Assembly (NCBI GenBank): GCA_031082145.1
Contig: JAVHLP010000008.1
Coordinates: forward strand, 8,818-72,817
Source: a bacterium
Lineage (GTDB): Bacteria; Bacillota; Sulfobacillia; UBA995
Direction: 5' to 3'
DNA length: 64,000 nucleotides
Shown here: positions 2,465 to 34,217 of the stretch, in pieces
Numbering within the stretch: the stretch's first letter is position 1
Layout: each line of letters begins with the position of its first letter
Position numbers and translations under genes: made by a program
The notes under the pieces: generated by a model
Databases searched by the model: none
Seen by the model: the letters and a program-made list of their open reading frames with translations, nothing else
Told to the model about the DNA's origin: nothing

Positions 2465-2816
2465 GGGGTGTGATCCCCTCGCCTCCGGCCGGATCCAGGA
2501 CCACCTCCGTCCCGTCATCCAGCACCAGCATGAGTTCCTTCCCGTCACTGTGCACCTCGCGGACGGCTTCCTCGCCCAAACCGAAGGTGTTGGCCGCACG
2601 GGTGGAAGACAGGATGAAGGTGGTCAGAGAGTCGGTCGCCCCGCCGGGCCCGCTCGTGATCCGGTCCACCTCCATGCTGAACCGTGCTTCGAGGTTACCG
2701 GCCATCCGGCCGCGCACCTGCACGGTGCCGTGTTCGCGCACGAAGTCTCTGACCTTCGCATAGGTCTCGCCCAAGGTCCTCACCTTCCCCGGGGAATAGT
2801 GTCCCCCGCGCGAGTT
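2403..2816 (-). CDS. hypothetical protein, 138 aa
   Basis: Only the distal part of the 2403..3290 ORF has protein-like composition (MNSRGGHYSPGKVRTLGETYAKVRDFVREHGTVQVRG...). Its ATG is divergent from, and 1 nt away from, the SDR gene. I recognise no family. Confidence 0.35.
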   Translation of the reverse strand, partial: NSRGGHYSPGKVRTLGETYAKVRDFVREHGTVQVRGRMAGNLEARFSMEVDRITSGPGGATDSLTTFILSSTRAANTFGLGEEAVREVHSDGKELMLVLDDGTEVVLDPAGGEGITPLSAERDRAHPHTRDPEPRGR

Positions 2817-2817
2817 C

Positions 2818-3618
2818 ATGCTTTGCAGAGGAGGGGGTTGGACCGTGGAGATCAACGACCGGCTGTTCCGGCTGGACGGCAAGGTAGCAGTGGTGACCGG
2901 CGGTAGCCGGGGCATCGGCAAGGCGATCTGCCTGGGGCTGGCGGCTTTCGGGGCCGATGTCGGCATCCTGGGCATCAGCCCGGAGACGACGGAAACGGTC
3001 CGGGCGATCGAAGAGCTCGGGCGCCGGAGCTTGTTCCTGAAGGTCGACGTGGCGGACGTGGAGCAGGTCAAGCAGGGGATGGCGGAGGCGGAGCGGATCT
3101 TGGGCGGTCCAGACATCCTGGTTAACAACGCCGGCGTGGGTGTGACCGATCCGGCGGAGGACGTCACCATGGATCTATGGCACCGGGTGCTGGGGGTCAA
3201 CCTCCGAGGGACTTTCTTCGCCAGCCAGGCTGCCGGTCGGAGCATGATCCGGCGCGGCCGGGGCGGCCGGATTATCAACATCACCAGCATTTTCGGGATC
3301 GTGGGCAGCGAACTGGGGGCCAGCGTCTACCATGCCTCGAAGGGAGCGGTGATCAACCTCACCCGGGCTCTGGCTTGCGAGTGGGCGAAGCACCGGATCC
3401 TCGTCAACAGCATCGGCCCCGGTTTCATCGTCACCGACATGACCGCACCCATCCACGAGCAGCCCAAACTGGAGGAACTCCTGGAGCGGCGGCACGCGCT
3501 GGGCCGCTTCGGCCGGCCGGAGGAGATCGTGGGCGCCGTCATCTTCCTGGCCTCCGACGCCTCCACCTTCGTGACCGGGGAGAACCTGTTCGTCGACGGC
3601 GGTTACACCGCCTGGTGA
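2818..3618 (+). CDS. short-chain dehydrogenase/reductase (SDR)
   Basis: It carries the classic Rossmann motif KVAVVTGGSRGIGKAI, an NNAG motif and the catalytic Y..K segment (YHASKGAV). Length is about 266 aa. The true start may be the GTG at 2844. Confidence 0.85.
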   Translation: MLCRGGGWTVEINDRLFRLDGKVAVVTGGSRGIGKAICLGLAAFGADVGILGISPETTETVRAIEELGRRSLFLKVDVADVEQVKQGMAEAERILGGPDILVNNAGVGVTDPAEDVTMDLWHRVLGVNLRGTFFASQAAGRSMIRRGRGGRIINITSIFGIVGSELGASVYHASKGAVINLTRALACEWAKHRILVNSIGPGFIVTDMTAPIHEQPKLEELLERRHALGRFGRPEEIVGAVIFLASDASTFVTGENLFVDGGYTAW

Positions 3619-3621
3619 CGG

Positions 3622-4428
3622 TCAGCGGCGCCTGCCCGTCTCCCGTCCCAGGAGTACCATCTGGTCATAACCGTCCTCGAGGACGATCGGACCCAGGCTG
3701 GCGAGTTCCCGGAACCCATGGCGGATAAAGAAGGCTGCCGGTCCGTTGGGGTGGGGGGCAGTCCGTCCAGCCACCACCTGCACCTCGCCGTAGCCGTGGC
3801 GATGAGCCTGCCGGAGAAAGGTCTCCATCACCTGTGGACGGTAGTCGAGACCGTTGCCGCGCGAGTAGACGCAGGTGATGAAGCCGAGGGACGGTTCTTT
3901 CCGGGGCAGCGGGTAGGGGACCAGCCCGGAGGGCAGGTGTTCCAGGGCCGCCACCGGCCGGCCACCGTCGAAGAGCAGGAGACCCAGGTCACCCCCCTTG
4001 ACCCGCAGGGCCATCGCTTCCGCCCACGCCTGCTTCAGGCGCTGGCCGTCGGGGGGGAAGCCGGCCGGCACGCAGACACTGCAGGCCTGGGCCACGGCCC
4101 GAGGTGTCAAGCGCCGCAGGCGATCGCCCTGAACGGCCCGGGACATGCGCTCCGGTAGTTGCACGCAGTGGGAGACGCCGTCGCGGGCCAGTTCAACCAG
4201 GCGCCTGGCGGTGGCCGGAGCGGGAAAGCGGAGGAGTCCGTTGATGACGGTGAGAAAAGGGAAGAACATGTTGTGACGCGCGGCCAGTTCAGGGCGTCCG
4301 GTGACGTCGACTGTCTCGAAGTCCGCACCCAGCAGGCCGGCCGCCTCGCGAGCCTGTTCCTTCATCCATGCCTGCCAGGGACACTGGGCCCCGAAGTGCA
4401 GGAACTGAACCCGCTTGACCTCAAGCAT
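3622..4428 (-). CDS. GNAT-type acetyltransferase-like protein with an N-terminal Cys-containing domain
   Basis: The C-terminal half ends ...HGYGEVQVVAGRTAPHPNGPAAFFIRHGFRE, which resembles a GNAT acetyl-CoA binding fold. The N-terminal FLHFGAQCPWQAW segment is reminiscent of YoaP-like domains. The call is weak. Confidence 0.4.
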   Translation of the reverse strand: MLEVKRVQFLHFGAQCPWQAWMKEQAREAAGLLGADFETVDVTGRPELAARHNMFFPFLTVINGLLRFPAPATARRLVELARDGVSHCVQLPERMSRAVQGDRLRRLTPRAVAQACSVCVPAGFPPDGQRLKQAWAEAMALRVKGGDLGLLLFDGGRPVAALEHLPSGLVPYPLPRKEPSLGFITCVYSRGNGLDYRPQVMETFLRQAHRHGYGEVQVVAGRTAPHPNGPAAFFIRHGFRELASLGPIVLEDGYDQMVLLGRETGRRR

Positions 4429-4508
4429 CTGGCCACCTCCCGGGGGCCCCTGCCGCTCAAGCCCTAAGACGAGCCTGTGCCCCGAGAAGTTCTGTTGCGA
4501 CCATCGGT

Positions 4509-5309
4509 TTACCGCGGATCCCGGCGGGGATGTTGGAATCCCCGGTGGTCAATGTAGAAGTCCTCCCTGCGCACGAGTTCGGAGATGGGGACAACGCGGT
4601 ACCCCCGGGTCTGGAGGGTCTCGATGATGGCCGGCAGGGCGACCGGGGTGTTCTCGGCGTTGTTGTGAAAGAGGATGATGGCGCCGGGGTGAGCCCGATC
4701 CAGCACCCGGGCCGCGATCTGCCGGGCGGTCACGTCTTTCCAGTCCAGGGAGTCCACGCTCCACTGGATGGTCAGGTAGCCCAGTTCCTCCGCCACCTCG
4801 ATGACCTTGTTCGAGTACTCGCCGAAGGGGGGCCGGAACAGGTAGGGCGCCTTGCCGGTGGCCTCCTCCAACTGGCGGTGAACGATCTCCAGTTCGCGTG
4901 CGATCTGCTCCCGGGACAGGGAGTTCAGGTGGGGATGACTGGCCGTGTGGTTGCCCACCTCATGGCCGGCATCCACTATCTGCCGCAAGACCTCCGGGTA
5001 ACGGTCGATCCAGAACCCAACCAGGAAGAACGTGGTCCTTACGTCGTACCTTGCCAGCACCTCGAGTATCTCCGGGGTGCGTTCGGAGCCCCAGGCGGCG
5101 TCGAAGGAGATGGCCAGCACCTGCTCGTCGGTGGCCACGGCGTAGATGGGCAGCCGGCGGTTCACCCCGGCACTGGCGGCGAGGGCGTGCTGCATTCCGG
5201 CCCGGGTGCCGGCGTCGGCGAGGGAGAAGGCGAGGGCGAGCAGGGCCAGCCCCGTCATGACCACCGACCGGCGGCGGAGAACCCGCACCAATGGGGTCAC
5301 CCCCACCAC
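4509..5309 (-). CDS. polysaccharide deacetylase (NodB homology, PdaA/PdaB-like), secreted
   Basis: A signal-peptide-like N-terminus precedes the NodB motifs FDAAWGSERTPEILEVLARYDVRTTFFLVGFWIDRYPEVLRQIVDAGHEVGNHTASHPHL. Confidence 0.85.
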   Translation of the reverse strand: MVGVTPLVRVLRRRSVVMTGLALLALAFSLADAGTRAGMQHALAASAGVNRRLPIYAVATDEQVLAISFDAAWGSERTPEILEVLARYDVRTTFFLVGFWIDRYPEVLRQIVDAGHEVGNHTASHPHLNSLSREQIARELEIVHRQLEEATGKAPYLFRPPFGEYSNKVIEVAEELGYLTIQWSVDSLDWKDVTARQIAARVLDRAHPGAIILFHNNAENTPVALPAIIETLQTRGYRVVPISELVRREDFYIDHRGFQHPRRDPR

Positions 5310-8046: not shown

Positions 8047-8102
8047 GGACAATTGTCCTGCTAGAGAGGCGCGCCCGCTGTGTCCAACATAATGTGTGGA
8101 CA
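8047..8102. promoter_or_regulatory. two palindromic candidate operator sites upstream of the ATP-grasp operon
   Basis: A perfect 12-bp palindrome GGACAATTGTCC lies at 8047-8058. An inverted repeat TGTCCA-N10-TGGACA lies at 8081-8102 and shares the GGACA/TGTCC half-site. Both sit in the 175-nt divergent intergenic region. Confidence 0.3.
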
Positions 8103-8131
8103 GAATCCTTCCCCGGCGGGGGTGCCCTCAG

Positions 8132-9478
8132 GTGATCTTCGAGTTCGAGCCGGCGCCCGGCGCAAGTGAGATCTGCCTGCCCTCTACGGTGGGGGTGTCC
8201 CCCGGCAAAACGCTGATCTTGAGGCTGGGCACGGCGCGGGTGACGGCTCGAACCACCGCCGGGCCGGCCACCGGCGCTGCCATGGGGACTGGAGCCGCCC
8301 GCCGGTTGGGGCTATCCCTTCCCGCCCGCCTCCGTGCTCGCTGGCACCCGGACCGGCGTACATTGCGGATCGGGCCGGTAGTCGGCATCCTAGTGCGCAA
8401 GGCCCGGAGCCAGTACGGGCCTTTCGGCCCTCAGGCCGGTTTCATCCGGGAACTAATGGACGCCGCCGGCCAGCTGGGAGTCTTCCTGTACGCTTTCGGT
8501 CCGGGTGACGTCAGCTGGGGCCGCCGTCGGGTCAGAGGTTACCGTTATCGCGGCCAAGGCGTCTGGACGCGCGGCCTGTACCCTTACCCGGACGTCCTGT
8601 GGGACCGTGGCTTTTTCCGGGGAGCCGCCCAGCGCCGCTACTGGGGGACCCGCATGGGCCTGGCCCGGGCCCACCGCCGTATGAGGTTTATCAACGCCAT
8701 CTACGGTAACAAGTGGCGCGTCCATCGCGTCCTGCTCCGCAGCCCCGAGGTGCGGCCCCACCTCCCCGAAACGCGACGGGCCAGCAGCGGGCGAGTCGTC
8801 GCCGCCATGGCTCGCCGCCACGGCACAGTCTACCTGAAACCGGCCGGCGGTCTGAAGGGCCGCGGGATCATGCGCCTGGAACGCGTGGGGCAGGGCCGTT
8901 TCCGGCTGCGGGCCGGCACCCGCTCGCGCGGCGGGAGTCTATCCCGCCTGGCCGCCATCGCCCGTCGCCGCGGCTACCTGGTCCAACAGGGCATCGACCT
9001 CGCGCGGCCTTTCGGCCCAATCGGCGATCTTCGCCTGGTGGTCCAAAAGGATGGCGCCGGCAACTGGAGCGTGACCGGGGGGGCAATGCGAGTGGCGGCC
9101 ACCGGTCACATTACCTCCAATATCCACCGCGGTGGCCATGCCGAACCGCTGGACGCCGCCGTCCGGGCGGTGGTGGGTGAAGGAGGCTACGCCGCCACCG
9201 CCGACCTCATCTCCCGGGTGGCCACCGGAGTTGCCCGGGCGGTGGAACGGGCCAGCGGACCATCGGGTGAGATGGGGGTCGACCTGGCCCTGGACCGCGA
9301 AGGCCGGGTGTGGTTCCTCGAGACCAATTCCAAGCTGGCTAGGAGCATCTTCCTGCAGCTAGGAGAGACCGAGACCCGCCGCCGGTCGATCGAACGCCCC
9401 TTGCTGTGGGCGGCCCGACGCAGCGGGTTCGCCGTACCCGAGGACGAACGGGAGGCGAGCTTCAGATGGCCCGGTTGA
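8132..9478 (+). CDS. YheC/YheD-family ATP-grasp protein
   Basis: ATP-grasp motifs VYLKPAGGLKGRGI, QQGIDL and the HITSNIHRGG block are present, together with the VWFLETNSKLA motif typical of YheC/YheD (the E-x-N of ATP-grasp enzymes). A GTG start at 8132 after a G-rich RBS is more likely than the listed 8096. Confidence 0.7.
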   Translation: MIFEFEPAPGASEICLPSTVGVSPGKTLILRLGTARVTARTTAGPATGAAMGTGAARRLGLSLPARLRARWHPDRRTLRIGPVVGILVRKARSQYGPFGPQAGFIRELMDAAGQLGVFLYAFGPGDVSWGRRRVRGYRYRGQGVWTRGLYPYPDVLWDRGFFRGAAQRRYWGTRMGLARAHRRMRFINAIYGNKWRVHRVLLRSPEVRPHLPETRRASSGRVVAAMARRHGTVYLKPAGGLKGRGIMRLERVGQGRFRLRAGTRSRGGSLSRLAAIARRRGYLVQQGIDLARPFGPIGDLRLVVQKDGAGNWSVTGGAMRVAATGHITSNIHRGGHAEPLDAAVRAVVGEGGYAATADLISRVATGVARAVERASGPSGEMGVDLALDREGRVWFLETNSKLARSIFLQLGETETRRRSIERPLLWAARRSGFAVPEDEREASFRWPG

Positions 9479-10761
9479 GGGTGGGCTTGCTCCGCGGCGC
9501 GGAAGGCGAGATCTCGCTCTCCCGGTTGGCCTGCCGGCGGCTCGACTTCTCCCCCGGCTCTCCGGTGCGCCTGCGGGCAGGCGTGAAGACGACCGAAGCC
9601 CGGATCCGGGCCGGCGCCCGGCCGGGGCATATTTTGCTCGCCCCCGACGTCCGGCAGGCACTCGCGCTGCCGGTGGGTCTTCGCCTGAACCTCTGGCGGA
9701 ACCGGGAAGGCGTCCTGCGCCTGGGCCCGCTGGTAGCAGTCCTGACCTTCCGCGGCACCAGCGGGTGGCGCTGGGGGCCCCAGACCCCATTCGTCCTGGC
9801 GGTGACTAGGCGGGGCGGTTCCGCCGGGGTGGTGGCTTATCTTCTCATGCCAGGGCGGATCGACTGGGAGAACCTCACCGCGCGGGGTACCTACCGGCAG
9901 CGGGGCCGCTGGCGGGGGGCCGTTCTACCCCTGCCCGACGTGGTCTACGACCGCGTATCCAGTCGCCGTCACGAAGGCCTGCCGGAGGTGGCGGAGGCCC
10001 GGCGCCGGCTGGCCGAGGTCGTGCCGGCGGGTTATTTCCCCCCATCTTTCCTGGGCAAGCTCGAAGCCCATAACCTGCTTGCGAGCAGCCCCCGGTTGGC
10101 TCCCTACTTGCCGGCCACCGAGCCGTTCAGTGTCGATAACCTGGAACGGATGCTCAGCCAGTACCGGGTGGTCTACCTGAAGCCGGATGGCGGCAGCCTG
10201 GGACGAGGTATCATCCGGGTGCGGCGGTTGCCCGGCGGGCGGGTGGCCTTCCGCTTCGCCCGGAGAGGCGGGGGGAGGGCCCGGTCGCCCCAGGCCCTGG
10301 CCAACCGCTTGAAAACCCTCGGCCAGCGGCCTTACCTCATCCAACAAGGTGTCCCGGTGGCCACCTGTGGCGGCCGCGTCTACGATGTCCGGGTCTTGGC
10401 CCAGAAGAATAGCCAGGGGCGCTGGCGCGTCACCCGCCACTACGCCCGGGTCGCGCGCCGGGGAAGGGTGGTCTCCAATATCTCGCGAGGAGGGACCGGG
10501 CTGGGAACCTGGCGAGTAGTTCGAGACGCGGGCGCCCGGCAGACCATCCTGCAACTCGGCCAGGATGTCCCCCCGGCGCTGGAGGCGGCTCTGGGCCAAC
10601 CCCTGGGAGAACTGGGCGTCGACCTGGGAGTAACCCGGGATGGGCGGGTCTTCATCATCGAGGTTAACGCCAAGCCCTACCGCGAGACCTGGGGCTGGGG
10701 TTCCGGGCCGACCTTCCGCTATCCCCTGGCCTACGCCCGGCACCTGGCCCGGCAGACCTGA
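9466..10761 (+). CDS. YheC/YheD-family ATP-grasp protein (second copy)
   Basis: The ATG at 9466 follows a GGAGG and overlaps the previous stop by 13 nt. The same motif set is present (VYLKPDGGSLGRGI, VVSNISRGG, VFIIEVNAKP). Confidence 0.7.
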   Translation: MARLRVGLLRGAEGEISLSRLACRRLDFSPGSPVRLRAGVKTTEARIRAGARPGHILLAPDVRQALALPVGLRLNLWRNREGVLRLGPLVAVLTFRGTSGWRWGPQTPFVLAVTRRGGSAGVVAYLLMPGRIDWENLTARGTYRQRGRWRGAVLPLPDVVYDRVSSRRHEGLPEVAEARRRLAEVVPAGYFPPSFLGKLEAHNLLASSPRLAPYLPATEPFSVDNLERMLSQYRVVYLKPDGGSLGRGIIRVRRLPGGRVAFRFARRGGGRARSPQALANRLKTLGQRPYLIQQGVPVATCGGRVYDVRVLAQKNSQGRWRVTRHYARVARRGRVVSNISRGGTGLGTWRVVRDAGARQTILQLGQDVPPALEAALGQPLGELGVDLGVTRDGRVFIIEVNAKPYRETWGWGSGPTFRYPLAYARHLARQT

Positions 10762-10770
10762 GGGGGGACC

Positions 10771-12150
10771 ATGGGCAAGCTCTTCTTACATGCCGAAGAC
10801 GACCCGGGTGGCGAGGAACTCGCCGGCCGGCTCAGCCAGCTGGGCTTCGCCACCGGCACCCGGCCCGGAGACGCCCGGTGGGACGTCCTCGTACGCTGGG
10901 GCCACCTGGGAGGCGAGGACAACTACCCCCTGGTGCTGAACGAGCGCCAGGCTCTCGAGGACCTCTCCTCCCGTGTCCCGGCCTGCCTACGAGCAAACCG
11001 GGTGCGAGTCACTTCGGCGATGGGCGGGAGGGGCCGCTACCGGGTATTTGCCTGTAACCTCCGATCCCTGGCCGTGTACCGGCGCACGGCTCGGGGCTAT
11101 GCCCGGCTGCGCCGCCGGCTCGCGCGCATACGCCGCCGCGCCGTCCGGTCCCTGCACTTCCTGGGACTTGACTTCGGGGCCGTGGATCTTACCGCCGGGG
11201 GCTACGTCTGCGGCGTGGATCCCTCCCCCTCGCTTCCATCCGACCTGGCTGGCCCCTTTGCCCGGGCCCTGGCCGACATGGCGAACGAACTGGAGAAACT
11301 GGCCCAGGCTCGCCGGGCGGGTGACCACCGCCGGTCGGCCGTGCTGGGGGCCGACCCCGAGTTCATGCTGATCAGCCGGCGGACAGGGCGCATGGTCCCG
11401 GCCTCGATCTTCTTCCCACGTTTCGGCTTCGTGGGTTGCGACGAGCGGGCGGTCTGGACCCCTCGTATGCGCCGCGCCCTGGCCGAGATCCGGCCGCGGC
11501 CGCGGGCTGATCCGCGGGAACTGGCGGGAGCCATCCGGGATGGTCTTCGCCGGGCCCTGCGCCGGACCGCCCGGCGGCGGGTCATGGGAGTGGCGGGGAA
11601 CATGCCCGTCCGGGGGTTCCCAACCGGCGGCCACATTCACTTCTCCCGCTGCCGTCTGGGCAGCCGGTTCCTCCGAGCCCTGGACAACTACCTGGCGCTC
11701 TTACTCCTGATGGTGGAGAACGCGCATACCGCTCGCCGCCGGCGGCGCCGCTACGGTTACCTGGCCGATCTGCGGTCCAAGCGGCACGGCTTCGAGTACC
11801 GGACCCCCGGCAGCTGGCTGGTGTCCCAGGACGTTGCCAACGGGGCACTCTGCCTGGCCAAGGTGATCGCCGACGACCACGACTGCCTGAAGGCGGCTCC
11901 CTTGCGTGACCCCGCCCTGGTAAGGGCCTTCTACCAGTGCGACAAGGCAATCCTGGGCCGGGTTGTGCCCTCGCTGTGGCGGGACCTCACCCTGGCCCCC
12001 TCCTACCCCCTGTATCGCCAGGAACTGGAGACCTTCCGAACCCTTATCGAGAGCGGCTGGGAGTGGGGGGAGCGGAGCGACCTTCGCCGCACCTGGGGCC
12101 TGATGCCGGCCGCCTCCACCCGCTCCCGCCGCCGTCGTCGCCGTCGCTAG
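10771..12150 (+). CDS. amidoligase fusion: degenerate ATP-grasp C-lobe plus glutamine-synthetase/GCS2-like (Amidoligase_2-like) domain
   Basis: The N-terminal half has RimK-like C-lobe motifs (RYRVFACNLRSL...LHFLGLDFGAVDL) but no ATP-binding N-lobe. The C-terminal half has LGADPEFMLI (a GS/GCS2-type beta-strand) and GGHIHFS, which resembles the GQHVHVG motif of YbdK-type carboxylate-amine ligases. A paralog lies at 48282. Both domain assignments are from memory and need an HMM check. Confidence 0.5.
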   Translation: MGKLFLHAEDDPGGEELAGRLSQLGFATGTRPGDARWDVLVRWGHLGGEDNYPLVLNERQALEDLSSRVPACLRANRVRVTSAMGGRGRYRVFACNLRSLAVYRRTARGYARLRRRLARIRRRAVRSLHFLGLDFGAVDLTAGGYVCGVDPSPSLPSDLAGPFARALADMANELEKLAQARRAGDHRRSAVLGADPEFMLISRRTGRMVPASIFFPRFGFVGCDERAVWTPRMRRALAEIRPRPRADPRELAGAIRDGLRRALRRTARRRVMGVAGNMPVRGFPTGGHIHFSRCRLGSRFLRALDNYLALLLLMVENAHTARRRRRRYGYLADLRSKRHGFEYRTPGSWLVSQDVANGALCLAKVIADDHDCLKAAPLRDPALVRAFYQCDKAILGRVVPSLWRDLTLAPSYPLYRQELETFRTLIESGWEWGERSDLRRTWGLMPAASTRSRRRRRRR

Positions 12151-15100
12151 CGAAGCCCCGCGTGCCGCCCCAGCGAGTCGGCGGCCCGCAGGGCCCAGTT
12201 CACCCGCTCGGCAAGAGCCTCCTTGGCCGATACCTCCACCAGAAAAGCGTGGACGCCCAGGAACTCCCCGGCGGCCCGGGCCAGGCTCCCCCGCACCGGC
12301 GGGCGAAGCGCCGTCCAGCCGGCCAGAGGCTTGCTGGCCCAGCCGTTGAGATCGGTGACCATGGCGTTGGCGAGCTGGGCCGTACCCGTGTTGGCGTGGT
12401 AGATCACGGTCTGGCCGAACTCGCCCTTCCCCGCCTTGTAGTAGTCGGCTCCCTCGATGAATGTGATGAGATGGGTCACCTTGTGCCTCCCGAGACTCTG
12501 CCAGATAGCTGTGGCCAGGGCTTCGCTGGGAGTCTCCCCCTTGGCCTGCGGGAAGGCCCGGTTGAGGTCACCTTCGCCGGGGGCGGTACGGCTCCCGAGC
12601 TCTACCGCCAAGCGGTTGGCCTGGGGCAGCAGCAAGATGACCCCCTTGGCCGGTAGCTGAGCGGCTTCCAGTAGTGACCCGACAGCCGTAGGGCTCCATT
12701 TCTCATCCCCCCGGATGCCGCCGGCCAGCATCAGCACCGGACCCGGCTTGCCACTGTCCAGCCGGTAAAGCGGAGTGGCGTCCTTGGTCCCGGCGGCCAG
12801 CCATTCGACGGTGACTCCGGGGGGCAAAGACGGCGGAGGGGGAGCCGGGTAGGCGGGCGCGGCCATGCCCAGGGCAACCAGCAAGCCGTCCACCGCCCGG
12901 GCTCCCTGCTCGGCCCGGCCGGCCAAACTCTCTTTCCGGCAGAGTTCCACCAGGAAGGCGGGAATCCCCGCCACCTCCCCCGCGGCCCGCGCCAGGCTGG
13001 TCGGGACGGGATTGCGCAGGGTGGTGAAGCGGGGCAAGGACTTCTCGATGATCTGGTTGGCTGCGACGACCATGGCACCGGCCAGGGGTTCGGCCTTGGT
13101 TACGGGGAAGTAGATCAGAGTCTGGCCGAACTCACCGGTCCGGGCCAGGTAGTAGTCGTTCCCTTCCACAAAGCTGACCACGACGTCCGCCGCCCGGGCC
13201 AGGTCCCAGATGGCCCGGGCCAGGGCGGTGGAAGGAGTCTCGCCGGCCGCCCGGGGGAAAGCCCGGTTGAGGTCGGATCCCCCCGGCGCCGACCGGGTGC
13301 CGGCCGCCAGCGCCGGGCGGTTAGCCTCCGGCAGCACCAACAGCCGGCCCTTGCTTACCTCGCAGTCGGCAATCAGGCGGGCAGCTTCCACCCCGCCCGG
13401 CTCATCACCTCGTAAGCCGCCCACCACCAGCACGGTGGGGCCGGGCTGGCTCCCATTGTACACGTGGAGGGGGGTGGCCTGCGAAGTACCCGGTAGCAGG
13501 GTGTGGGTCTCCCGGGGAGACGGGCCTGAGCTCTTCGGCTTCATGCCCAACTGGACGAGAAGAGAGTCGGCGGCCCGCAGGGCCAGGTCAACCCGGGTCT
13601 CCACCGGCTCCCGGGAGCACAGATCCATCAGTATGGCCTGGGCCCCCAAGAAGTCCCCCGCCGCCCGGGCCAGGCTCCCCGGCGCCGGGTTCCGCAAGGT
13701 GGTGAAACGGGCCACCTCGGCCAGGATGACGGAGTTGAGGTCGGCCGCCATGCCGGCAGCCAGCCCGGCCACTCCGGACGGACCGGCATGGATCAGGGTG
13801 TGCCCGAAGTGTCCGGTCTTCCTCAGGTAGTAGTCGGGGTCTTCGGTGAAAGTGAGCACGTACTGGACCGCCTGGTCCTGCATGGCCCCCCAGATCGCCC
13901 CGGCCAGTTCGTCGGCCGGGCGTCCGGGCTCGCGGGGGAACAAGCGGTTCAGGTCTTCGCCACCGGGAAACGCCCGCTGACCCAGGTCCAGGGCCAGCCG
14001 GTTGGCTCCCGGCAGCACCAGCAGCCGTCCCTTGTCCACTCGCAGGTCACGAGTTGCCAGGGCGGCCAGCACGGTCGCCGGCGCGTCTCCCCGGAGCCCA
14101 CCGGCGATCATGACCGTGGGACCGGGCTGCCCGCTGTCCTGGATGTACAGGGGCGTCGCCAGAGGGGTCCCGGCCAGCAGAACCTGGCGGGTCATCCCCG
14201 GGCCAAGGTCGGGGGGTGGTGGCGGCAGGTAGACCCTTTCCCTCATACCCAGCCGGGCCAGCAGCGAGTCGACCGCCCGGGCCCCGTCGACGGCCCGGCC
14301 GTCCAGTGGCTCCCGGGCCGACAGCTCGATCAGGAAAGCCCGTATGCCGAGGAGTTCACCGGCGGCGCGGGCCAGGCTGGTCGGCACCGGGTTCAGCAGC
14401 ACACTGAAGGCCGCCAGGTTGCGGTCATAGCCCAGGTTCAGGTCAAGCGCCATCCCGTCGGCCAGCACGCTGGCCCCGGGGACGGGGTAGTAGATCACAG
14501 TCTGTCCGCACTCACCGGTCCGCGCCAGGTAGTAGTCGGCTCCCTCCACGAAGGTGACCAGGTGGTTCACCTGGTAGCGCCGGACAACCTGCCAGATGAC
14601 AGTCGCCAGGGCCCCTTCGGGCCGGTTGGCGGTAGTCCGGGGGAAAGCCCGGTTCAGGTCCGCCTCGCCGGGCGCGGTGTGGCTGGCAGCCGCGATGGCC
14701 TGGGGATTAGCCTCCGGCAACACCAGCAGCGTCCCCGAGGTGACCGCGAACTGCCGCACGAGTCCGGCCGCCGCCACCCCGCCGGGTTCGTTGCCCCGCA
14801 GGCCGCCGACCACCATCACCACGGGACCCTCCACCCCGCTATCGTAGGCGAAAAGGGTGGTCTGATCAGGGTGCTCCTCGAGCAGGGTGACCAGGTTCAA
14901 ACCCGGTCCCAGGTCGGGGAAATCGGCCCCCCAGTCATCGTCGTCGTCCCATGCGGGTGGGTCGTCACCGGGAGGAACAGACGTCGGCGGCCCTCCCGCG
15001 CCCGCCATGCCGAGCTCGCGGAGGTAGATCTCTACCATCTGTATCTGGTAGCCGATGCGGGTGGACAGGGCCAGCCGCTGCGATGTCTCGAAGATGGCGG

Positions 15101-15779
15101 AGTTCACGCCGAGATACGCCCCTGTGGCCCGGGCGATGCTGCCCGGCACCGGATAACTGATCAGGGTGAACTTGTGCAGGTTGACGCTTATGCCCTGGTT
15201 GATCTCGCGCACGGCCAAGCGACCCAGCTCGGTGTTCACCGTCCGGGGATAGTGAATGAGGGTCTGCCCCACTGAACTGGTCTTGGGGTTCTTGTAGAAG
15301 TCCGCGGCCTCGTGCAGGTCGAGGTACCAATCCACGTTGAACTCCTTGAAGACGTTCCAGATCTCGAGGGCGATGGGCCGGGTGGGATCGGTGTTGGCGC
15401 TCTGGGGGAACTGCCGGTTCAGATCGAAACCCAGGACCGGGCAGGTACGCTTCCGGGCGGCCACCGCCGGCCGGTTGGCCTCCGGGATGACGATGAAGGT
15501 CCCAGCCCTGATATCGCGGTCGACAAACGTCCAAGCTGCCCTCCAGCCCGCAGTCTCGTTGCCATGCACTCCCCCGGTGACCATGAAGACGGGGCCGGGG
15601 TCGGGGCCCCGGATGATGTACAGGGGGGTCTCGTAGCGGGTACCTTTGGCCAGGTACCTGATTTCTACCGTGCTCTCTGCCCGGGTCGGCGATGGCAGGC
15701 ACACGGACACCAGAGGAGCGAGTACCAGCAGGCAAACCAGTAACTGGCTTAGCCTGCGCCGGAGGATGGAGTTGGGCAC
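12147..15779 (-). CDS. secreted multi-domain M14 carboxypeptidase-like protein: five tandem domains, only the first with intact zinc ligands
   Basis: A signal peptide (MPNSILRRRLSQLLVCLLVLAPLVSVCLPSPTRA) follows a GTG start at 15779 after a GAGGTGGA RBS. Domain 1 has GGVHGNETAG, DLNRQFP and DLHEAAD (the M14 HxxE, N-R and His elements). Domains 2-5 have GGLRGNE, GGLRGDA, GGLRGDE or GGIRGDE, and FVEGADYY in place of the second His. Each domain carries its own DLNRAFP/DLNRLFP motif. Confidence 0.75.
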   Translation of the reverse strand: MPNSILRRRLSQLLVCLLVLAPLVSVCLPSPTRAESTVEIRYLAKGTRYETPLYIIRGPDPGPVFMVTGGVHGNETAGWRAAWTFVDRDIRAGTFIVIPEANRPAVAARKRTCPVLGFDLNRQFPQSANTDPTRPIALEIWNVFKEFNVDWYLDLHEAADFYKNPKTSSVGQTLIHYPRTVNTELGRLAVREINQGISVNLHKFTLISYPVPGSIARATGAYLGVNSAIFETSQRLALSTRIGYQIQMVEIYLRELGMAGAGGPPTSVPPGDDPPAWDDDDDWGADFPDLGPGLNLVTLLEEHPDQTTLFAYDSGVEGPVVMVVGGLRGNEPGGVAAAGLVRQFAVTSGTLLVLPEANPQAIAAASHTAPGEADLNRAFPRTTANRPEGALATVIWQVVRRYQVNHLVTFVEGADYYLARTGECGQTVIYYPVPGASVLADGMALDLNLGYDRNLAAFSVLLNPVPTSLARAAGELLGIRAFLIELSAREPLDGRAVDGARAVDSLLARLGMRERVYLPPPPPDLGPGMTRQVLLAGTPLATPLYIQDSGQPGPTVMIAGGLRGDAPATVLAALATRDLRVDKGRLLVLPGANRLALDLGQRAFPGGEDLNRLFPREPGRPADELAGAIWGAMQDQAVQYVLTFTEDPDYYLRKTGHFGHTLIHAGPSGVAGLAAGMAADLNSVILAEVARFTTLRNPAPGSLARAAGDFLGAQAILMDLCSREPVETRVDLALRAADSLLVQLGMKPKSSGPSPRETHTLLPGTSQATPLHVYNGSQPGPTVLVVGGLRGDEPGGVEAARLIADCEVSKGRLLVLPEANRPALAAGTRSAPGGSDLNRAFPRAAGETPSTALARAIWDLARAADVVVSFVEGNDYYLARTGEFGQTLIYFPVTKAEPLAGAMVVAANQIIEKSLPRFTTLRNPVPTSLARAAGEVAGIPAFLVELCRKESLAGRAEQGARAVDGLLVALGMAAPAYPAPPPPSLPPGVTVEWLAAGTKDATPLYRLDSGKPGPVLMLAGGIRGDEKWSPTAVGSLLEAAQLPAKGVILLLPQANRLAVELGSRTAPGEGDLNRAFPQAKGETPSEALATAIWQSLGRHKVTHLITFIEGADYYKAGKGEFGQTVIYHANTGTAQLANAMVTDLNGWASKPLAGWTALRPPVRGSLARAAGEFLGVHAFLVEVSAKEALAERVNWALRAADSLGRHAGLR

Positions 15780-15828
15780 GGGTCCACCTCTTTCTTCTCG
15801 CCCCAAGACAAGGCGTTATGAGGTCAAA

Positions 15829-15915
15829 CGCCCAGCTCGGGATGATTATGGTGGACCGCCCATTCGCCGGCAGGCTTGGCATCTCCTGCCTGCTCTAGCA
15901 GGTATTTTGTGGCAC
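15829..15915 (-). promoter_or_regulatory. conserved ~87-nt upstream element, copy 1 (before the 5-domain M14 gene)
   Basis: The shared core with the 16848-16935 copy is CGCCCAGCT.GGG...TGGTG.A.CGCCCATTCG.CGGCA.GGCTTGGCATCTCCTG.CT...CAGGTA. It lies 43-49 nt upstream of the start codons of both M14 genes and contains a small hairpin, CCTGC-TCTA-GCAGG. Confidence 0.35.
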
Positions 15916-15960: not shown

Positions 15961-15996
15961 CGACTCAAAGAAGAAGCCGCGCCTTAAGGGCGCGGC
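15961..15996 (-). terminator. rho-independent terminator after the single-domain M14 gene
   Basis: On the minus strand a stem (arms GCCGCGCC and GGCGCGGC, TTAA loop) is followed by TTCTTCTTT. Confidence 0.4.
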
Positions 15997-16024
15997 CGGA
16001 GAGGAAAAGGGCAGGTGCGGGGGG

Positions 16025-16804
16025 TTAGCGGCCCGACATGCCCAGTTCGCGCAAGAAGATCTCCACCACCTGCACCTGGTAGTTAATGCGGGTGGCCAGG
16101 GGCAGTTCGCGCGAGGTCTCCATGATGTAGGAGTTCACCCCGAGATAGTCGCCTGCGGCCCGGGCAATGCTGCCCGGAACCGGGTAGTTCAGCAGGGTGA
16201 ACTTGTGTAGCCGGCGGCTGATCCCCTGGTTCAGCTCCTGAACGGCCAGGTTGCCCATCCGGGTGGCGGTGGGGCCGGGGTAATGGATCAGGGTCTGGCC
16301 GATGGAATCCCGCTTCGGATCGTTGTAGAAGTACACCGCCTCGTGCAGGTCCACGAACCACTCGACCCGGTAGTCGGTGAACACGCTCCAGATCTCGCGG
16401 GCGATGAGGCGGGTGGGGCTGGCGTTAGGACGGGTGGGAAAAGCCCGGTTCAGATCAAAGCGTCCGTCCGGGCACAGTCGAGTCCGAGCTCCCACCGCCG
16501 GCCGGTTCGCCTCGGGAATGACGATGAAGGTGCCAGCCTGGATCTCGCGGTCAGCGAATCGCCCGGCCGCCATCCAGCCGGCGAGCTCGCTGCCGTGCAC
16601 TCCTCCGGTGATCAGGAACACGGGACCGGGGGCGAGGCCCCGGATGATGTACATGGGAGTCTCGTAGATGGAGCCAGCGGCCAGGTACCTGACTTCCACC
16701 GTGCTCCCCGCCCGAGCGGCCGACGGGACCGGCAGGAGCAGGGTCAACGCCAGCAGGGAGACCACCATCAGGCTGGCCCTGGGGCTGACTACTGGGCTGG
16801 ACAC
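16025..16804 (-). CDS. secreted single-domain M14 carboxypeptidase-like protein (intact HxxE and His)
   Basis: A GTG start after GGAGGTGGA gives the signal peptide MSSPVVSPRASLMVVSLLALTLLLPVPSAARA. The product has GGVHGSELAG, DLNRAFP and FVDLHEAVYFY, and is co-linear with domain 1 of the 5-domain protein. Confidence 0.75.
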   Translation of the reverse strand: MSSPVVSPRASLMVVSLLALTLLLPVPSAARAGSTVEVRYLAAGSIYETPMYIIRGLAPGPVFLITGGVHGSELAGWMAAGRFADREIQAGTFIVIPEANRPAVGARTRLCPDGRFDLNRAFPTRPNASPTRLIAREIWSVFTDYRVEWFVDLHEAVYFYNDPKRDSIGQTLIHYPGPTATRMGNLAVQELNQGISRRLHKFTLLNYPVPGSIARAAGDYLGVNSYIMETSRELPLATRINYQVQVVEIFLRELGMSGR

Positions 16805-16847
16805 AAATCCACCTCCGCCTCGACTCGCCCCCGGCGGGCGTACATAC

Positions 16848-16935
16848 GCCCAGCTTGGGGCTGTTTTGGTGAATCGCCCATTCGGCGGCAAGGCTGGCAT
16901 CTCCTGTCTCCGAAGGCAGGTAGATTATGCAAGAC
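16848..16935 (-). promoter_or_regulatory. conserved ~87-nt upstream element, copy 2 (before the single-domain M14 gene)
   Basis: See copy 1. The copies are about 75% identical over ~87 nt, while the flanking non-coding sequence is unrelated. Confidence 0.35.
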
Positions 16936-29084: not shown

Positions 29085-29118
29085 GGCGGACCCGGCAACC
29101 TTGCCGGATCCGCCCTCG
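29085..29118 (-). terminator. stem-loop immediately 3' of rnpB
   Basis: GGGCGGAUCCGGCAA-GG-UUGCCGGGUCCGCCC (15-bp stem, one mismatch) directly follows the P1 3' strand. Confidence 0.35.
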
Positions 29119-29120
29119 TG

Positions 29121-29489
29121 GCGACCAGATCGATAAGCCGAGTTCAGTCGAGGATGGTCATCTCTCTGGGACCAGGGTTGCCCCATGGCCTCATGCGACC
29201 AACCCGAGGGGTCGGCGGGCCGCGTCATTCCCCTCCTATTTGGTCTTGCTCCGGGTGGGGTTTGCCTAGCCGGCCCGTCACCGGACCGCTGGTGAGCTCT
29301 TACCTCACCGTTGCACCCTTGCCCGTCAGGGACGGGCGGTACGTTTTCTGTGGCACTTTCCTTGGGGTCGCCCCCACTGGGTGTTACCCAGCACCCTGCC
29401 CTGCGGAGCTCGGACTTTCCTCGGGCACGGCCTCGCGGCGCTTGTGCCCGCGACCACCTGATCTGGTCAGCCGATCGGCTTATACTCGC
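29121..29489 (-). ncRNA. rnpB: RNase P RNA (bacterial type A)
   Basis: The minus strand carries the universally conserved GAGGAAAGUCCGAGCUCC...CAGGGUGCUGGGUAACACCCAGUGGGGGCGACCCCAAGGAAAGUGCCACAGAAAACGUACCGCC P4 region, ...GGUAAGAGCUCACCAG..., ...ACCCGGAGCAAGACCAAAUAGG... and the 3' ...GAACUCGGCUUAUCGAUCUGGUCGCC, which pairs with the 5' GCCGAUCGGCUGACCAG as helix P1. This is nearly colinear with E. coli M1 RNA. The 5' end sits ~7 nt downstream of a -10 box. Confidence 0.9.
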
Positions 29490-29630: not shown

Positions 29631-31031
29631 TCAGAAGATGATCGTGAAGACGGCTCCCTTTCCGGTGTTGCCGGCCTCAATCTTGCCGTTGTGCTGCTCA
29701 ATGATGGACTCCACAATGGAAAGCCCGATGCCGTGCTTGCCCCCGCTGCCTTTGTAGAAGCGATCAAAAATGCGGGGAAGGTCTTCGCCTGCTATGCCGT
29801 CACCGTCGTCGATCACCGAGACGGTTGTCCTGCCGTTCTCCTGACGGCAGGCAAGGGTGATGGTGCTTCTTGCGTACCTGAGCGCGTTTGAGATGAGGTT
29901 TGAGAAGGCACGGGACATGCGCTTTTCATCGCATAGCAGGTTTACCGGCTCGCCATCAAACTCGAAGATGAACTGGAGATTCCGCTCCGCCGCCAGGCTT
30001 CTCTGACGCTCGGCGCAGTTTGAGAGGAGTTCGCGCAGGTCATGCTGTTCAGTTCTGCCGCTCGGGGTTATGCTATCAATCCGCGAGAGGTAAAGCAAGT
30101 CCTCAACCATCTCGCTGAGCCGATCGGTTTCGCCCATTATCACCCGGCTCGATCGCCTGGGGTCCAGAATCCCGTGTGCGATGCCTTCGGCGTTGCACCT
30201 GATAGTCTGCAGCGGAGTCCTGAGCTCATGGGACACGTTTTGGAAGAAGGTCTTCTGCTCCTTGTCGTAGGCATCAAGCTGAGCGGCCGCTTTGTTCATG
30301 CTCTCGGCAAGCTCTGCGAGTTCCCTATCCCTGTAGTTCAAGGCGCTGGTCGCGAAGTCTCCCTTCCCTATTCTCACTGCAAGCCGTTTGAGCTCTCTGA
30401 CCGGTGCCGCGATCCTGTCCGACAGAAACATGGCGATGCCGAAGGCCAGAACCCCGGCCACACCCATGACCACCGAGAGCACGGTGTTTAGGCGATCGGA
30501 GAAGGAGGTGATGGCCGTCATGTCGATGTAGTATACCAGGTAGGACAGCCCCCCCGGCATCGGCACCGAGACCAGGTAATACTCCCTGTCGGAGACCTTG
30601 AGCCGCAGGATCTCGGCCTTCCGCAGATCCACCCCCTCGGCCTCCAACTGCGCCACGACGGCGCTTATCTCATCATGATTGGGGATGAAGTTCAGGCCGG
30701 GATCGGGGAACAGGAGTTCGTAGTCTTCGGACACGATTACCGCCTCGGCCCTGCCGATCGGGCCCCTCGGCAGCCTTCTCATGTCGGGGATGAACTCCGG
30801 CCTGTGGTCCGGCGGAGGCTGGCTCACGGGTGGGGGGCCTTGGACGTTCCCCATGTCACTTAGCACTTGGAGGGCCTCTCTCAGCTGTTCGTTCACGCTG
30901 GCCTTGATGTACTCGCCGACCAGCAGGTTGAAGACCGCCAGGACAACCAGGAAGATGGCGGCGATCAGAGACAGCACCATGACCAGAATCCGGGTGCGGA
31001 TGCTGATCTTAAGCGTGCGGGTCTTACTCAC
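29631..31031 (-). CDS. sensor histidine kinase (HAMP-HisKA-HATPase)
   Basis: Two TM helices, a HisKA H-box (NVSHELRTPLQTI) and N/G1/G2 ATPase motifs (SNALRYA, DDGDGIAGEDLPRIFDRFYKG, GIGLSIV). GC is lower than the surroundings. Confidence 0.8.
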   Translation of the reverse strand: MSKTRTLKISIRTRILVMVLSLIAAIFLVVLAVFNLLVGEYIKASVNEQLREALQVLSDMGNVQGPPPVSQPPPDHRPEFIPDMRRLPRGPIGRAEAVIVSEDYELLFPDPGLNFIPNHDEISAVVAQLEAEGVDLRKAEILRLKVSDREYYLVSVPMPGGLSYLVYYIDMTAITSFSDRLNTVLSVVMGVAGVLAFGIAMFLSDRIAAPVRELKRLAVRIGKGDFATSALNYRDRELAELAESMNKAAAQLDAYDKEQKTFFQNVSHELRTPLQTIRCNAEGIAHGILDPRRSSRVIMGETDRLSEMVEDLLYLSRIDSITPSGRTEQHDLRELLSNCAERQRSLAAERNLQFIFEFDGEPVNLLCDEKRMSRAFSNLISNALRYARSTITLACRQENGRTTVSVIDDGDGIAGEDLPRIFDRFYKGSGGKHGIGLSIVESIIEQHNGKIEAGNTGKGAVFTIIF

Positions 31032-31725
31032 CGGCCGGGCGTTCCTTAAGGCGAAAACCAAAGCCCCACACCGTCTCAATGAGAGTCCTGCTGCCCGATA
31101 GTTTCTTCCGCAGCCGCCGCACGGTGTCGTCGGCGGCTCGCGTTTCCACTTCGCTATTGTACCCCCATATCTTGTTCAACAGTTCCTCCCGGGATATGGC
31201 TCTGTCTTTGTGCTGGATGAGATAACACAAGAGATTGTACTCATTCGGCGTGAGCTCCAAGGGAGCGCCCTCAAGCACTGCGGTCTTGTTGTTAAGGTCC
31301 ACTCGAACACCGGCATGCTCAAGAACAAGCGGCAGCGGAGTCTTCTTCTCCTTCGTATCGAATTCCATCCGGCGGAATATCGCCTTCACTCTCATGACAA
31401 GCGATATGGCCGAGAATGGCTTGGTGAAGTAGTCGTCGCTGCCGAGGTTTATCCCGGTGGCATATTCCAGCTCACCCTCACGAGCCGTGAGCATGATGAT
31501 GGGAACGGTGCTGATCTTGCGCAATTCCGAGCATACGGCAAACCCACTGGACCCCGGCATCATCACGTCGAGGATCACCAGGTCGCTTGGCCTCTCCCGG
31601 AAGGCGGCGAGCAACTGGTCGCCGTCCTCGAAGGCGCTGACGCAATACCCCTCACTCTCCAAGAAAGACTTGACCACCTCGCGTATGTTCTGCTCGTCGT
31701 CGGCAATGTAGATGCGCTCGTTCAT
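31024..31725 (-). CDS. OmpR-family response regulator
   Basis: The receiver domain has the phospho-acceptor context (DLVILDVMMPG). The winged-helix region reads TPNEYNLLCYL...WGFGFRL. The start is at MNERIYIADDE. Confidence 0.85.
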   Translation of the reverse strand: MNERIYIADDEQNIREVVKSFLESEGYCVSAFEDGDQLLAAFRERPSDLVILDVMMPGSSGFAVCSELRKISTVPIIMLTAREGELEYATGINLGSDDYFTKPFSAISLVMRVKAIFRRMEFDTKEKKTPLPLVLEHAGVRVDLNNKTAVLEGAPLELTPNEYNLLCYLIQHKDRAISREELLNKIWGYNSEVETRAADDTVRRLRKKLSGSRTLIETVWGFGFRLKERPAGE

Positions 31726-31798
31726 GCCCTTGTCCACCTCCCCTTCTATCGTTGCCCAGCCGGCAGCCAGCTTCACCCCGGGGAAGGCAGGGCTCTCC

Positions 31799-34196: not shown

Positions 34197-34217
34197 TGGA
34201 TCGGCTCCTCTCGCAGA

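Follow-up and report, generated by a model that had tools for sequence, protein, structure and literature searches.

A predicted exported protein with one complete and four conserved zinc-less carboxypeptidase-like domains, encoded beside YheC/D-type ligases in a Symbiobacterium-like bacterium

Five tandem domains in one protein

Here we describe a gene in a 64,000-nucleotide stretch of DNA from a Symbiobacterium-like bacterium (GenBank assembly GCA_031082145.1, contig JAVHLP010000008.1, positions 8,818–72,817 of the forward strand; the whole stretch is referred to below as the window, and its coordinates are used throughout). The gene encodes a single long protein in which a zinc-carboxypeptidase-like domain occurs five times in tandem, and we call it the array gene. 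Only the first domain (D1) has a complete metal site and catalytic set; the other four (D2–D5) have lost both zinc histidines and kept their carboxylate clamp, and they are held by purifying selection. The array gene and its product are laid out as follows, with residues counted from the GTG at 15779.

12147..15779, minus strand: array gene for a 1210-residue, five-domain AstE/AspA–M99-like protein, P0001 (open reading frame, Pfam, identical protein from an NCBI metagenome-assembled genome, MAG)
15678..15779, minus strand: signal-peptide-like N-terminus, MPNSILRRRLSQLLVCLLVLAPLVSVCLPSPTRA followed by ES (sequence inspection)
15003..15677, minus strand: D1, catalytically complete, with H72, E75, R111, N121, R122, H156 and E231 (motifs, Csd4 alignment)
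14922..15002, minus strand: 27-residue Pro/Asp-rich linker, GAGGPPTSVPPGDDPPAWDDDDDWGAD (sequence)
14241..14921, minus strand: D2, zinc-less, with R328, E331, H367, N376, R377, V411 and E485
13539..14210, minus strand: D3, zinc-less and the most degenerate, with R563, A566, R602, N611, R612, T645 and D719
12861..13523, minus strand: D4, zinc-less, with R790, E793, R829, N838, R839, V871 and E945
12150..12830, minus strand: D5, zinc-less, with R1023, E1026, R1064, N1073, R1074, I1108 and E1182

The open reading frame as a whole spans 12147..15806 (minus strand; 1219 codons counted from the first TTG). A start at GTG 15779 is better than one at the TTG, as it has AAGAGGTGG upstream as a ribosome-binding site and yields the 1210-residue length of P0001, which was deposited as ‘MAG: succinylglutamate desuccinylase/aspartoacylase family protein [bacterium]’. 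By eye, the N-terminus is laid out like a Sec signal peptide: the n-region is basic, the hydrophobic core is 17 residues long, and T-R-A precedes D1. The N-termini of all array homologues are alike, and the protein is probably exported.

Against Pfam, the protein matched AstE_AspA_cat (PF24827) over five stretches (E = 3.4e-53, 180.5 bits; cut-off 25) and Peptidase_M99, the family of Csd4, over three (96.5 bits; cut-off 27). No second Pfam domain, such as a C-terminal hybrid beta-domain, was found at E ≤ 0.01. The original prediction, made from the sequence alone, had read the protein as five tandem M14 domains, of which only the first was catalytically competent. The Pfam matches and domain limits confirm five zinc-carboxypeptidase-like domains in one protein, but the family label was loose: Peptidase_M14 (PF00246) has no match at E ≤ 0.01 in either the array protein or its single-domain paralog next door, and the families are instead AstE_AspA_cat and Peptidase_M99. 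Among the relatives described below, 4 of 62 matched Peptidase_M14 at E ≤ 1e-3, and the precomputed matches in two relatives were faint. All NCBIfam equivalogs fell below their cut-offs for the array protein (DoeB 121.9 versus 402.7, ASPA 34.4 versus 180, AstE 26 versus 170), and the MpaA model was also far under its own. Because the Pfam families match while the equivalog cut-offs are missed, these models place the protein within the zinc-carboxypeptidase-like superfamily and with none of its named enzymes.

Each domain is about 225 residues long (D1 35–259, D2 287–513, D3 524–747, D4 753–973, D5 984–1210), and the linkers of 27, 10, 5 and 10 residues leave no room for extra domains. D2–D5 are 46–55% identical among themselves and 33–38% identical to D1, and thus the duplications are old; D1 and the paralog are 67.6% identical.

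Loss of the metal site and retention of the substrate pocket

Catalytic positions were mapped onto Csd4 through alignments to entries of the Protein Data Bank (PDB) and the published Csd4 structure, in which Q46, E49 and H128 bind the metal, R86 stabilizes the oxyanion, the C-terminal carboxylate is gripped by N93 and R94, and E222 acts as general base (PMC4220969). The motif of the first zinc histidine reads GGVHGNE in D1 and GGLRGNE, GGLRGDA, GGLRGDE and GGIRGDE in D2–D5, while that of the second reads DLHEAADFY in D1 and TFVEGADYY, TFTEDPDYY, SFVEGNDYY and TFIEGADYY in D2–D5. The first metal position is therefore H in D1 and R in D2–D5, and the last is H in D1 and V, T, V and I, respectively, in the others. 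At the second metal ligand Glu is kept in D1, D2, D4 and D5, with Ala in D3, and the general base (Csd4 E222; E270 of carboxypeptidase A, CPA) is E in the same four domains, with D3 having D. Arg at the oxyanion position (Csd4 R86, CPA R127) is present in D1, D3, D4 and D5, with His in D2, and the Asn-Arg carboxylate clamp, DLNRxFP, occurs in all five domains. Hence the motifs were exactly as first quoted, and the alignments bear out the earlier reading that repeat 1 alone has the full metal and catalytic set, that repeats 2–5 have Arg for the first His, and that DLNRxFP runs through all five.

Alignments to the solved structures 3cdx and 6twl, together with 17 aligned pseudo-domains, revealed no hidden His/Glu metal pair in repeats 2–5. 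The Arg aligns on the first zinc His (GGLRGDE over GGvHGDE of 3cdx) and the Val on the second (SFVEG over DFHSG of 6twl), no column of the 17 pseudo-domains holds a substitute His at ≥70%, and the placement of the H-to-R and H-to-V/T/V/I changes is unambiguous in these alignments. Invariant in live and dead domains alike are GG-x-x-G-x-E, DLNR-x-FP, A-x-x-IW, E197, GQT and S-x-AR, residues that, as mapped, belong to the substrate pocket.

The structure of one dead domain, D4, was modelled with AlphaFold (AF2; predicted local distance difference test score, pLDDT, 79; predicted template-modelling score, pTM, 0.83). Searched with Foldseek, the model matched AstE-family proteins, DoeB, Csd4, CphZ, MpaA and classical carboxypeptidases, all with probability 1.0; for 3na6, 6twm, 3cdx and Csd4 the template-modelling (TM) scores were 0.58–0.63, the range widening to 0.54–0.63 with MpaA and CPA/CPB. 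The model thus predicts that the fold of the dead domain is intact, and we regard D2–D5 as probable pseudopeptidase domains, which lost both zinc histidines and kept the fold.

The dead domains are maintained by selection

Four further assemblies contain orthologous arrays. The one in DYFO01, a MAG labelled Symbiobacterium thermophilum, has five domains and 63% identity; those of L007, from a Bacillota MAG, and L006, from a JGI metagenome contig, have four domains each; and the fourth assembly is that of Clostridiales bacterium UBA8125 (L009). Domain order is kept across the orthologues, and D3 is missing from those with four domains. In L009 the array is split into overlapping open reading frames, 2498–3271 (a D1 fragment) and 3157–5166 (three dead domains), through either a frameshift or an assembly error.

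The dead domains of these proteins are maintained by purifying selection and are not decaying. Between the orthologues P0001 and P0002, D1 is 66% identical and D2, D3, D4 and D5 are 67, 64, 68 and 62% identical. The ratio of nonsynonymous to synonymous substitution rates (dN/dS; Nei–Gojobori, L006 versus L007) is 0.11 for D1 and 0.09, 0.15 and 0.10 for the three dead domains. With dN/dS at 0.09–0.15 and orthologue identity equal to that of the active domain, we reject the idea that the repeats are decaying neutrally. Functionless, decaying duplicates, or an artefact of assembly or annotation, thus make an explanation to which we give almost no credence. Its supporting points are that the source is a metagenome-assembled genome and that the L009 orthologue looks split; yet the same architecture recurs in five independent assemblies, the frame stays open across 3.6 kb at 70% G+C, and repeats that are only 46–55% identical are neither recent copies nor the product of repeat-collapse.

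The new Arg is also constrained. All 17 dead copies, which come from five loci, have it at the first metal position, while the second-His position in the same copies can be V, T, I or L and the general base E, D or V; the base is Val in D2 and D3 of three orthologues with four domains, P0003, L007 and P0007. Since the Arg is invariant where the second metal position is merely hydrophobic, we conclude that the Arg itself was selected, beyond the loss of the His, and that the catalytic base was not; the earlier claim of a consistent His-to-Arg change under selection is upheld by these counts and by the dN/dS values. The variability of the general base in orthologous dead domains, in turn, argues against catalysis.

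Arrays from different lineages keep exactly one canonical domain

A profile of six window domains, searched against 1.84 billion representative proteins, gave 5947 matches at E ≤ 1e-3 and 355 at E ≤ 1e-30; the array figures below rest on the best 150 of these 355 close relatives. The related loci were retrieved with an alignment of the active domains, the full-length query having returned 140 pattern matches and no relatives. Among the best 150 relatives the canonical H/E/H/E set was found in 147 domains, and each of the 14 complete multi-domain proteins, with two, three, four or five domains, has exactly one canonical domain (14/14), N-terminal in some array lineages and C-terminal in others.

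The remaining domains have degenerated by different routes (CPA numbering). In the Symbiobacterium clade H69 became R and H196 became V, T, I or L; P0008 and P0012 combine H69 to R with E270 to S; P0004, P0005 and P0011 have E72 to G; P0010, P0014 and P0016 have E72 to Q with E270 to T or A; and P0006 has H196 to Q with E270 to R. Across all arrays the degenerate domains nevertheless keep R145 in 28 of 29 cases and N144 in 26 of 29. In a neighbour-joining tree the dead domains of P0004, P0005 and P0011 cluster with their own live domains, which marks this clade as clearly inactivated on its own, while most other dead groups are basal, a placement that may reflect either shared ancestry or long-branch attraction. 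Lineage-specific inactivation in which the carboxylate clamp is almost always spared indicates, at the level of sequence, selection for binding without hydrolysis.

These patterns also bear on whether the domains are dead at all. A guanidinium group might replace Zn2+ as the electrophile, aided by the retained Glu and Arg, to give a metal-free hydrolase with five active sites. Catalytic metals have been replaced by Arg or Lys in other enzyme families, for example in bacterial phosphatidylinositol-specific phospholipase C (PI-PLC) as opposed to Ca2+-dependent phospholipase C, and here the Arg is invariant, with E72, the oxyanion Arg, the Asn-Arg pair and the general-base Glu all present in D4 and D5. 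However, D3 has Asp as its general base and D2 and D3 of the three four-domain proteins named above have Val, D2 is without the oxyanion Arg and D3 without E72, and other lineages inactivate their extra domains differently (E72 to G or Q; E270 to R, S or T). These different routes point to loss of catalysis as their common outcome, and we consider metal-free hydrolysis very improbable.

Among the longer single-domain relatives (P0055–P0154), 28 of 62 have a C-terminal class-I glutamine-amidotransferase-like domain (BPL_N/ThuA/DJ-1 matches), apparently a widespread fusion of hydrolase and glutamine-amidotransferase-like domain that is different from the arrays. Two loci of Verrucomicrobiota (L012, L013) encode single-domain relatives of about 500 residues, the length of this fusion group, and a few other relatives have PG_binding_1, SH3_3, fn3 or VWA domains.

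Array genes are linked to spore-coat-associated ligases

The array gene faces a plus-strand operon of three genes, with which it is convergent.

8096..9478, plus strand: YheC/D-type ATP-grasp ligase 1, start codon uncertain (Pfam ATPgrasp_YheCD, E = 1.4e-65)
9466..10761, plus strand: YheC/D-type ATP-grasp ligase 2 (Pfam ATPgrasp_YheCD, E = 7.9e-60)
10771..12150, plus strand: COOH-NH2 ligase (PF14395; Pfam, E = 2.1e-89; adjacency conserved)

An orthologue of ligase 1 is adjacent in L001, L006 and L007. The longest open reading frame of ligase 2 begins at 9406, and its likely start is ATG 9466, with a 13-nucleotide overlap as in L001. The stop codons of the COOH-NH2 ligase and the array gene share the palindrome CTAG at 12147–12150, which reads TAG on both strands in a 4-bp overlap; this overlap is not conserved, there being a 10-nucleotide gap in L001.

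The block of five genes formed by the single-domain paralog, the array, the COOH-NH2 ligase and the two ATP-grasp ligases recurs in L001, L007 and L009. L006 has the array and all three ligases on a contig that begins at the array gene, so that the position of the paralog lies off the contig. The same ligase families also accompany distant arrays of low G+C and 36–39% identity: a COOH-NH2 ligase and a YheC/D gene beside P0004; YheC/D beside P0006; three YheC/D genes, CotE and a COOH-NH2 ligase beside P0008; three YheC/D genes beside P0010; two YheC/D genes, CotE and a COOH-NH2 ligase beside P0012; and three YheC/D genes, two COOH-NH2 ligases and CotE beside P0014. The neighbours of P0015 include one YheC/D gene together with genes for a gamma-glutamyltranspeptidase, a SleB-like cortex hydrolase, SpoIIP, Germane and GerAC. 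Overall, a YheC/D ATP-grasp gene (PF14398) lies within 6 kb of the array in 12 of 13 distinct loci, the only one without ligases being P0005, on a 6-kb contig; a COOH-NH2 ligase gene (PF14395) is near the array in nine of 13 and CotE in three of 13. Neither ligase family was found in the 10-kb flanks of six single-domain relatives (0/6). Judged by these neighbourhoods, the linkage appears to be specific to arrays and ancient; it recurs among many spore-formers and hints at a system for remodelling the envelope.

CotE is a coat morphogenetic protein, and the PF14398 and PF14395 genes together are presumably a peptide-ligase system of Bacillota. YheC and YheD are Bacillus subtilis spore-coat proteins, YheD residing in the basement layer (PMC7725329). 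Searched by sequence against the PDB, neither the COOH-NH2 ligase nor an ATP-grasp ligase gave a match. The gene for the gamma-glutamyltranspeptidase (L040, 651–2306, minus strand) is the one immediately upstream of P0015, which is a two-domain array, and gives a weak hint that the substrate is perhaps a gamma-glutamyl compound.

The neighbourhoods also help to weigh a role in peptidoglycan trimming. D1 would here be a Csd4/MpaA-like carboxypeptidase cutting gamma-D-glutamyl-meso-diaminopimelate (gamma-D-Glu-mDAP) bonds of wall or cortex stem peptides, and the dead domains would bind the wall as counterparts of LysM, SH3b or PG_binding repeats, reading stem-peptide carboxylates, with the ligases unrelated or only loosely related. 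Csd4 is indeed the best PDB sequence match for D1 (E = 1.3e-09), and Peptidase_M99 scores over its cut-off; PG_binding_1 repeats occur in three single-domain relatives and SH3_3 in one; the SleB-like cortex hydrolase and SpoIIP are encoded in the L040 neighbourhood; and a polysaccharide deacetylase gene lies near the cluster in both the window and L001. Identity to Csd4 is only about 20%, however, its Gln ligand and two C-terminal domains are absent, and the array-specific link to YheC/D and COOH-NH2 ligases persists to 36–39% identity, beyond coincidence. We therefore think wall trimming an unlikely explanation, although stem peptides of peptidoglycan or cortex are the chief alternative ligand.

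A proposed function for the array protein

We propose, with a probability of roughly 55%, that the array protein is an exported hydrolase of the envelope whose one live zinc domain is tethered by four zinc-less, carboxylate-reading domains to a ligase-linked peptide or isopeptide polymer with a connection to sporulation. D1 would be a zinc amidase or carboxypeptidase of the AstE–AspA or Csd4 (M99) type that cuts an amide bond beside a free carboxylate, on the model of Csd4 and MpaA (gamma-D-Glu-mDAP), AstE and DoeB (N-acyl amino acids) and CphZ (beta-Asp-Arg). Presumably unable to hydrolyse, D2–D5 keep the Asn-Arg clamp and, in three of four, the second Arg, and have gained an Arg at the metal site; they could act as four ligand-binding modules that recognize a peptide or isopeptide made of repeated units bearing carboxylates. 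By holding on at several points they would anchor the enzyme to its substrate and so raise the local substrate concentration or the processivity of the single active site, and the dead domains might present neighbouring units to D1. The ligand would probably be something that the adjacent cytoplasmic ligases, of the YheC/D ATP-grasp and COOH-NH2 types, produce or act on, a candidate that we favour because the link to these ligases is specific and ancient. Elsewhere in the Bacillota this ligase system has ties to the spore envelope.

In its broad shape this resembles the original prediction, which spoke of tandem capture domains ‘feeding one active site’; we likewise infer binding, the kind of ligand and cooperation between the domains, but capture is one of several non-catalytic roles that the evidence allows, the others being anchoring, scaffolding and regulation. 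Gamma-glutamyl peptides, suggested earlier as substrates, would be plausible by analogy with Csd4, MpaA and AstE.

Several points weigh against this proposal. The ligases lack signal peptides and the cluster has no conserved exporter, so that it is hard to see how their product would meet an exported enzyme; the array gene and the ligase operon, being convergent, are not co-transcribed. In net charge and isoelectric point the domains share no basic or acidic bias that would indicate a polyanionic ligand. D2 has His for the oxyanion Arg, D3 has also lost E72, the Arg side chain is assumed to lie in the former metal site, and the pocket residues could be kept for the stability of the fold alone. 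No CotE gene adjoins the cluster, either in the window or among its close relatives, and the connection with sporulation, drawn from other lineages, is thus indirect for the window organism.

Alternatively, the dead domains might contact other proteins, organizing a layer of the spore envelope or activating or inhibiting D1 or the paralog. There are precedents in degenerate LytM proteins, of which EnvC and NlpD regulate amidases and SpoIIQ scaffolds a channel. Pseudopeptidases commonly serve protein–protein interactions (PMC11266112), the domain order is conserved in orthologues, CotE is adjacent in three loci, and an active single-domain paralog is encoded next door. On the other hand, invariance falls on the substrate pocket (DLNR, second Arg, E72, E197, GQT) and not on surface patches, and R145, kept in 28 of 29 degenerate domains, is replaced in five eukaryotic protein-binding M14 pseudopeptidases (PMC11266112). 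A scaffolding or regulatory role thus strikes us as distinctly unlikely.

Returning to the tethered hydrolase, a wider and more tentative extension, which we regard as doubtful, is that the arrays, the YheC/D and COOH-NH2 ligases and, in some lineages, CotE make up one uncharacterized spore-envelope system, in which the ligases would build a repetitive, carboxylate-rich polymer or modification of peptide or isopeptide nature and the exported array would read it through the zinc-less domains, with the new Arg as an extra carboxylate clamp, and trim it through the live one.

Relation to known systems

The nearest characterized enzyme by sequence is Csd4 (Pgp1; MEROPS M99), a D,L-carboxypeptidase that trims the muramyl tripeptide in Helicobacter and Campylobacter. 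D1 has its best PDB sequence matches there (4wcm, 4wck, 4q6m), the M99 model scores over its cut-off, the fold is shared, as judged from the D4 model, and so is the catalytic layout (metal triad, R86, N93/R94, E222); Csd4 is an exported envelope enzyme cutting beside a free carboxylate, and the same is proposed for the array protein. It differs in that its first metal ligand is Gln, with Q-x-x-E...H strict in Csd4 homologues (PMC4220969), in place of His in D1 and Arg in D2–D5. Its single catalytic domain precedes a beta-barrel and an Ig-like domain, with no tandem or dead copies, and it is found in Campylobacterota, at about 20% identity and with no ATP-grasp ligase link.

The AstE/AspA family (AstE, aspartoacylase, DoeB/EutE; 3cdx, 3na6, 6twm) supplies the best Pfam model and the best Foldseek matches, and shares the H-x-x-E...H zinc site of D1 and the paralog as well as the Asn-Arg carboxylate clamp. 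Unlike the array protein, its enzymes are cytoplasmic, have a single domain with a C-terminal hybrid beta-domain and act on small N-acyl amino acids. CphZ, a cyanophycin dipeptide hydrolase (8ein, 8eip), has an AstE-like fold that the D4 model matches at a TM-score of about 0.55, and it degrades the isopeptide product of an ATP-grasp-containing synthetase, the kind of ligase–hydrolase pairing proposed here. CphZ is, however, cytoplasmic and single-domain, has no dead copies and is paired with a different ligase family.

Zinc-less envelope peptidase domains were already known from LytM. The degenerate LytM (M23) domains of EnvC, NlpD and SpoIIQ have lost their zinc ligands and have non-catalytic roles in the envelope or in sporulation. 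Unlike the array domains, they have an unrelated fold, occur as single dead domains that are not fused in arrays, and act through protein–protein contact.

Tandem carboxypeptidase-like domains with a conserved inactive member were likewise known from metazoan carboxypeptidase D, which has three tandem M14B domains, the third inactive. Like carboxypeptidase D and the M14 pseudopeptidases AEBP1, CPXM1/2 and Ecm14 (PMC11266112), the arrays contain a conserved inactive member, a pseudoenzyme under selection, and, as in carboxypeptidase D, the tandem domains belong to one exported protein, export being predicted for the array. Carboxypeptidase D has two active domains and one dead, whereas the array has one active and four dead. 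Moreover, the eukaryotic pseudo-domains keep H69 and lose R145 and usually E270, while the dead array domains lose both His and keep R145; the carboxypeptidase D group is also eukaryotic, is of the M14B type with a transthyretin-like domain and has no ligase link.

In the searchable literature we met with no account of tandem AstE/M99 arrays in bacteria, of the one-live-domain rule or of the association with YheC/D, and the M14 cases in a 2024 review of metallopeptidase pseudoenzymes are all eukaryotic (PMC11266112). Inactive enzyme domains that selection preserves have been described extensively for eukaryotes and little mapped for bacteria, and the arrays offer a clean system for testing how catalytic pockets are reused as binding modules. 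The link to YheC/D, COOH-NH2 ligases and CotE also opens a route into the chemistry of widespread spore-coat-associated ligases. If the wider reading, of one spore-envelope system, is true, this would be the first bacterial metallopeptidase domain repeatedly turned, in independent lineages, into a multivalent ligand-binding repeat, and the long-orphan coat proteins YheC and YheD would gain a biochemical role.

The paralog, a conserved leader and transcription units

Upstream of the array gene, on the same strand, lie the paralog and three features that may govern expression.

16025..16804, minus strand: single-domain, intact paralog of the D1 type, putatively secreted (Pfam, motifs)
15780..15915, minus strand: conserved 5' leader of the array gene, with a predicted helix sequestering the Shine–Dalgarno (SD) region (consensus and single-sequence folds)
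16805..16935, minus strand: second copy of the leader, upstream of the paralog
15975..15997, minus strand: terminator-like hairpin directly 3' of the paralog stop codon (nine pairs, eight of them G-C; T-rich tail)

The paralog starts at GTG 16804, preceded by a GGAGG-like ribosome-binding site (read from the translation of the open reading frame), and it is complete at all eight mapped positions, in agreement with the earlier statement that it is fully intact. It is 68–72% identical to the D1 domains of all orthologues, whereas the corresponding paralogs of L001, L007 and L009, at the equivalent place, are only 47–56% identical to D1 domains and have no leader. Because the window paralog is both D1-like and leader-bearing and those of the other genomes are neither, the comparison suggests that, in this lineage, the array gene had its 5' end duplicated or copied by gene conversion.

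The leader, of about 135 nucleotides, precedes the array gene in the window, in L001 (6148–6284), in L007 (9765–9900) and in L009 (2452–2587). Its anti-SD segment, GGUCCACC, pairs with the SD region, GGUGGACC, in the consensus fold and in all four single-sequence folds, and two compensatory changes support this helix; the z-scores of the folds are -2.9, -2.1, -2.2 and +0.3. The leader has no Rfam match, and two metagenome pattern scans for further copies gave nothing or 19 unrelated coding matches. We regard it as a candidate translational riboswitch or leader, which may sense the same metabolite as the array system. Because the terminator-like hairpin, a strong one, follows the stop codon of the paralog, the paralog and the array gene, though on the same strand, are probably separate transcription units.

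Other features of the window

A second COOH-NH2 ligase gene (PF14395, E = 6.6e-81), encoding a longer N-terminal extension, lies at 48051–49676 (plus strand), flanked by genes for TPR-repeat proteins of about 800 residues at 45757–48285 (plus strand) and 49686–52130 (minus strand). At 29631–34904 (minus strand) a CotH kinase-family gene (31799–33535) is followed by DUF4956 and VTC-domain genes; this cluster adjoins a pair encoding a HAMP histidine kinase and an OmpR-type response regulator, and has a G+C content of 0.61, as against about 0.70 in the rest of the window. The window is devoid of tRNA genes and encodes a bacterial class A RNase P RNA at 29118–29469 (minus strand; 294.6 bits).

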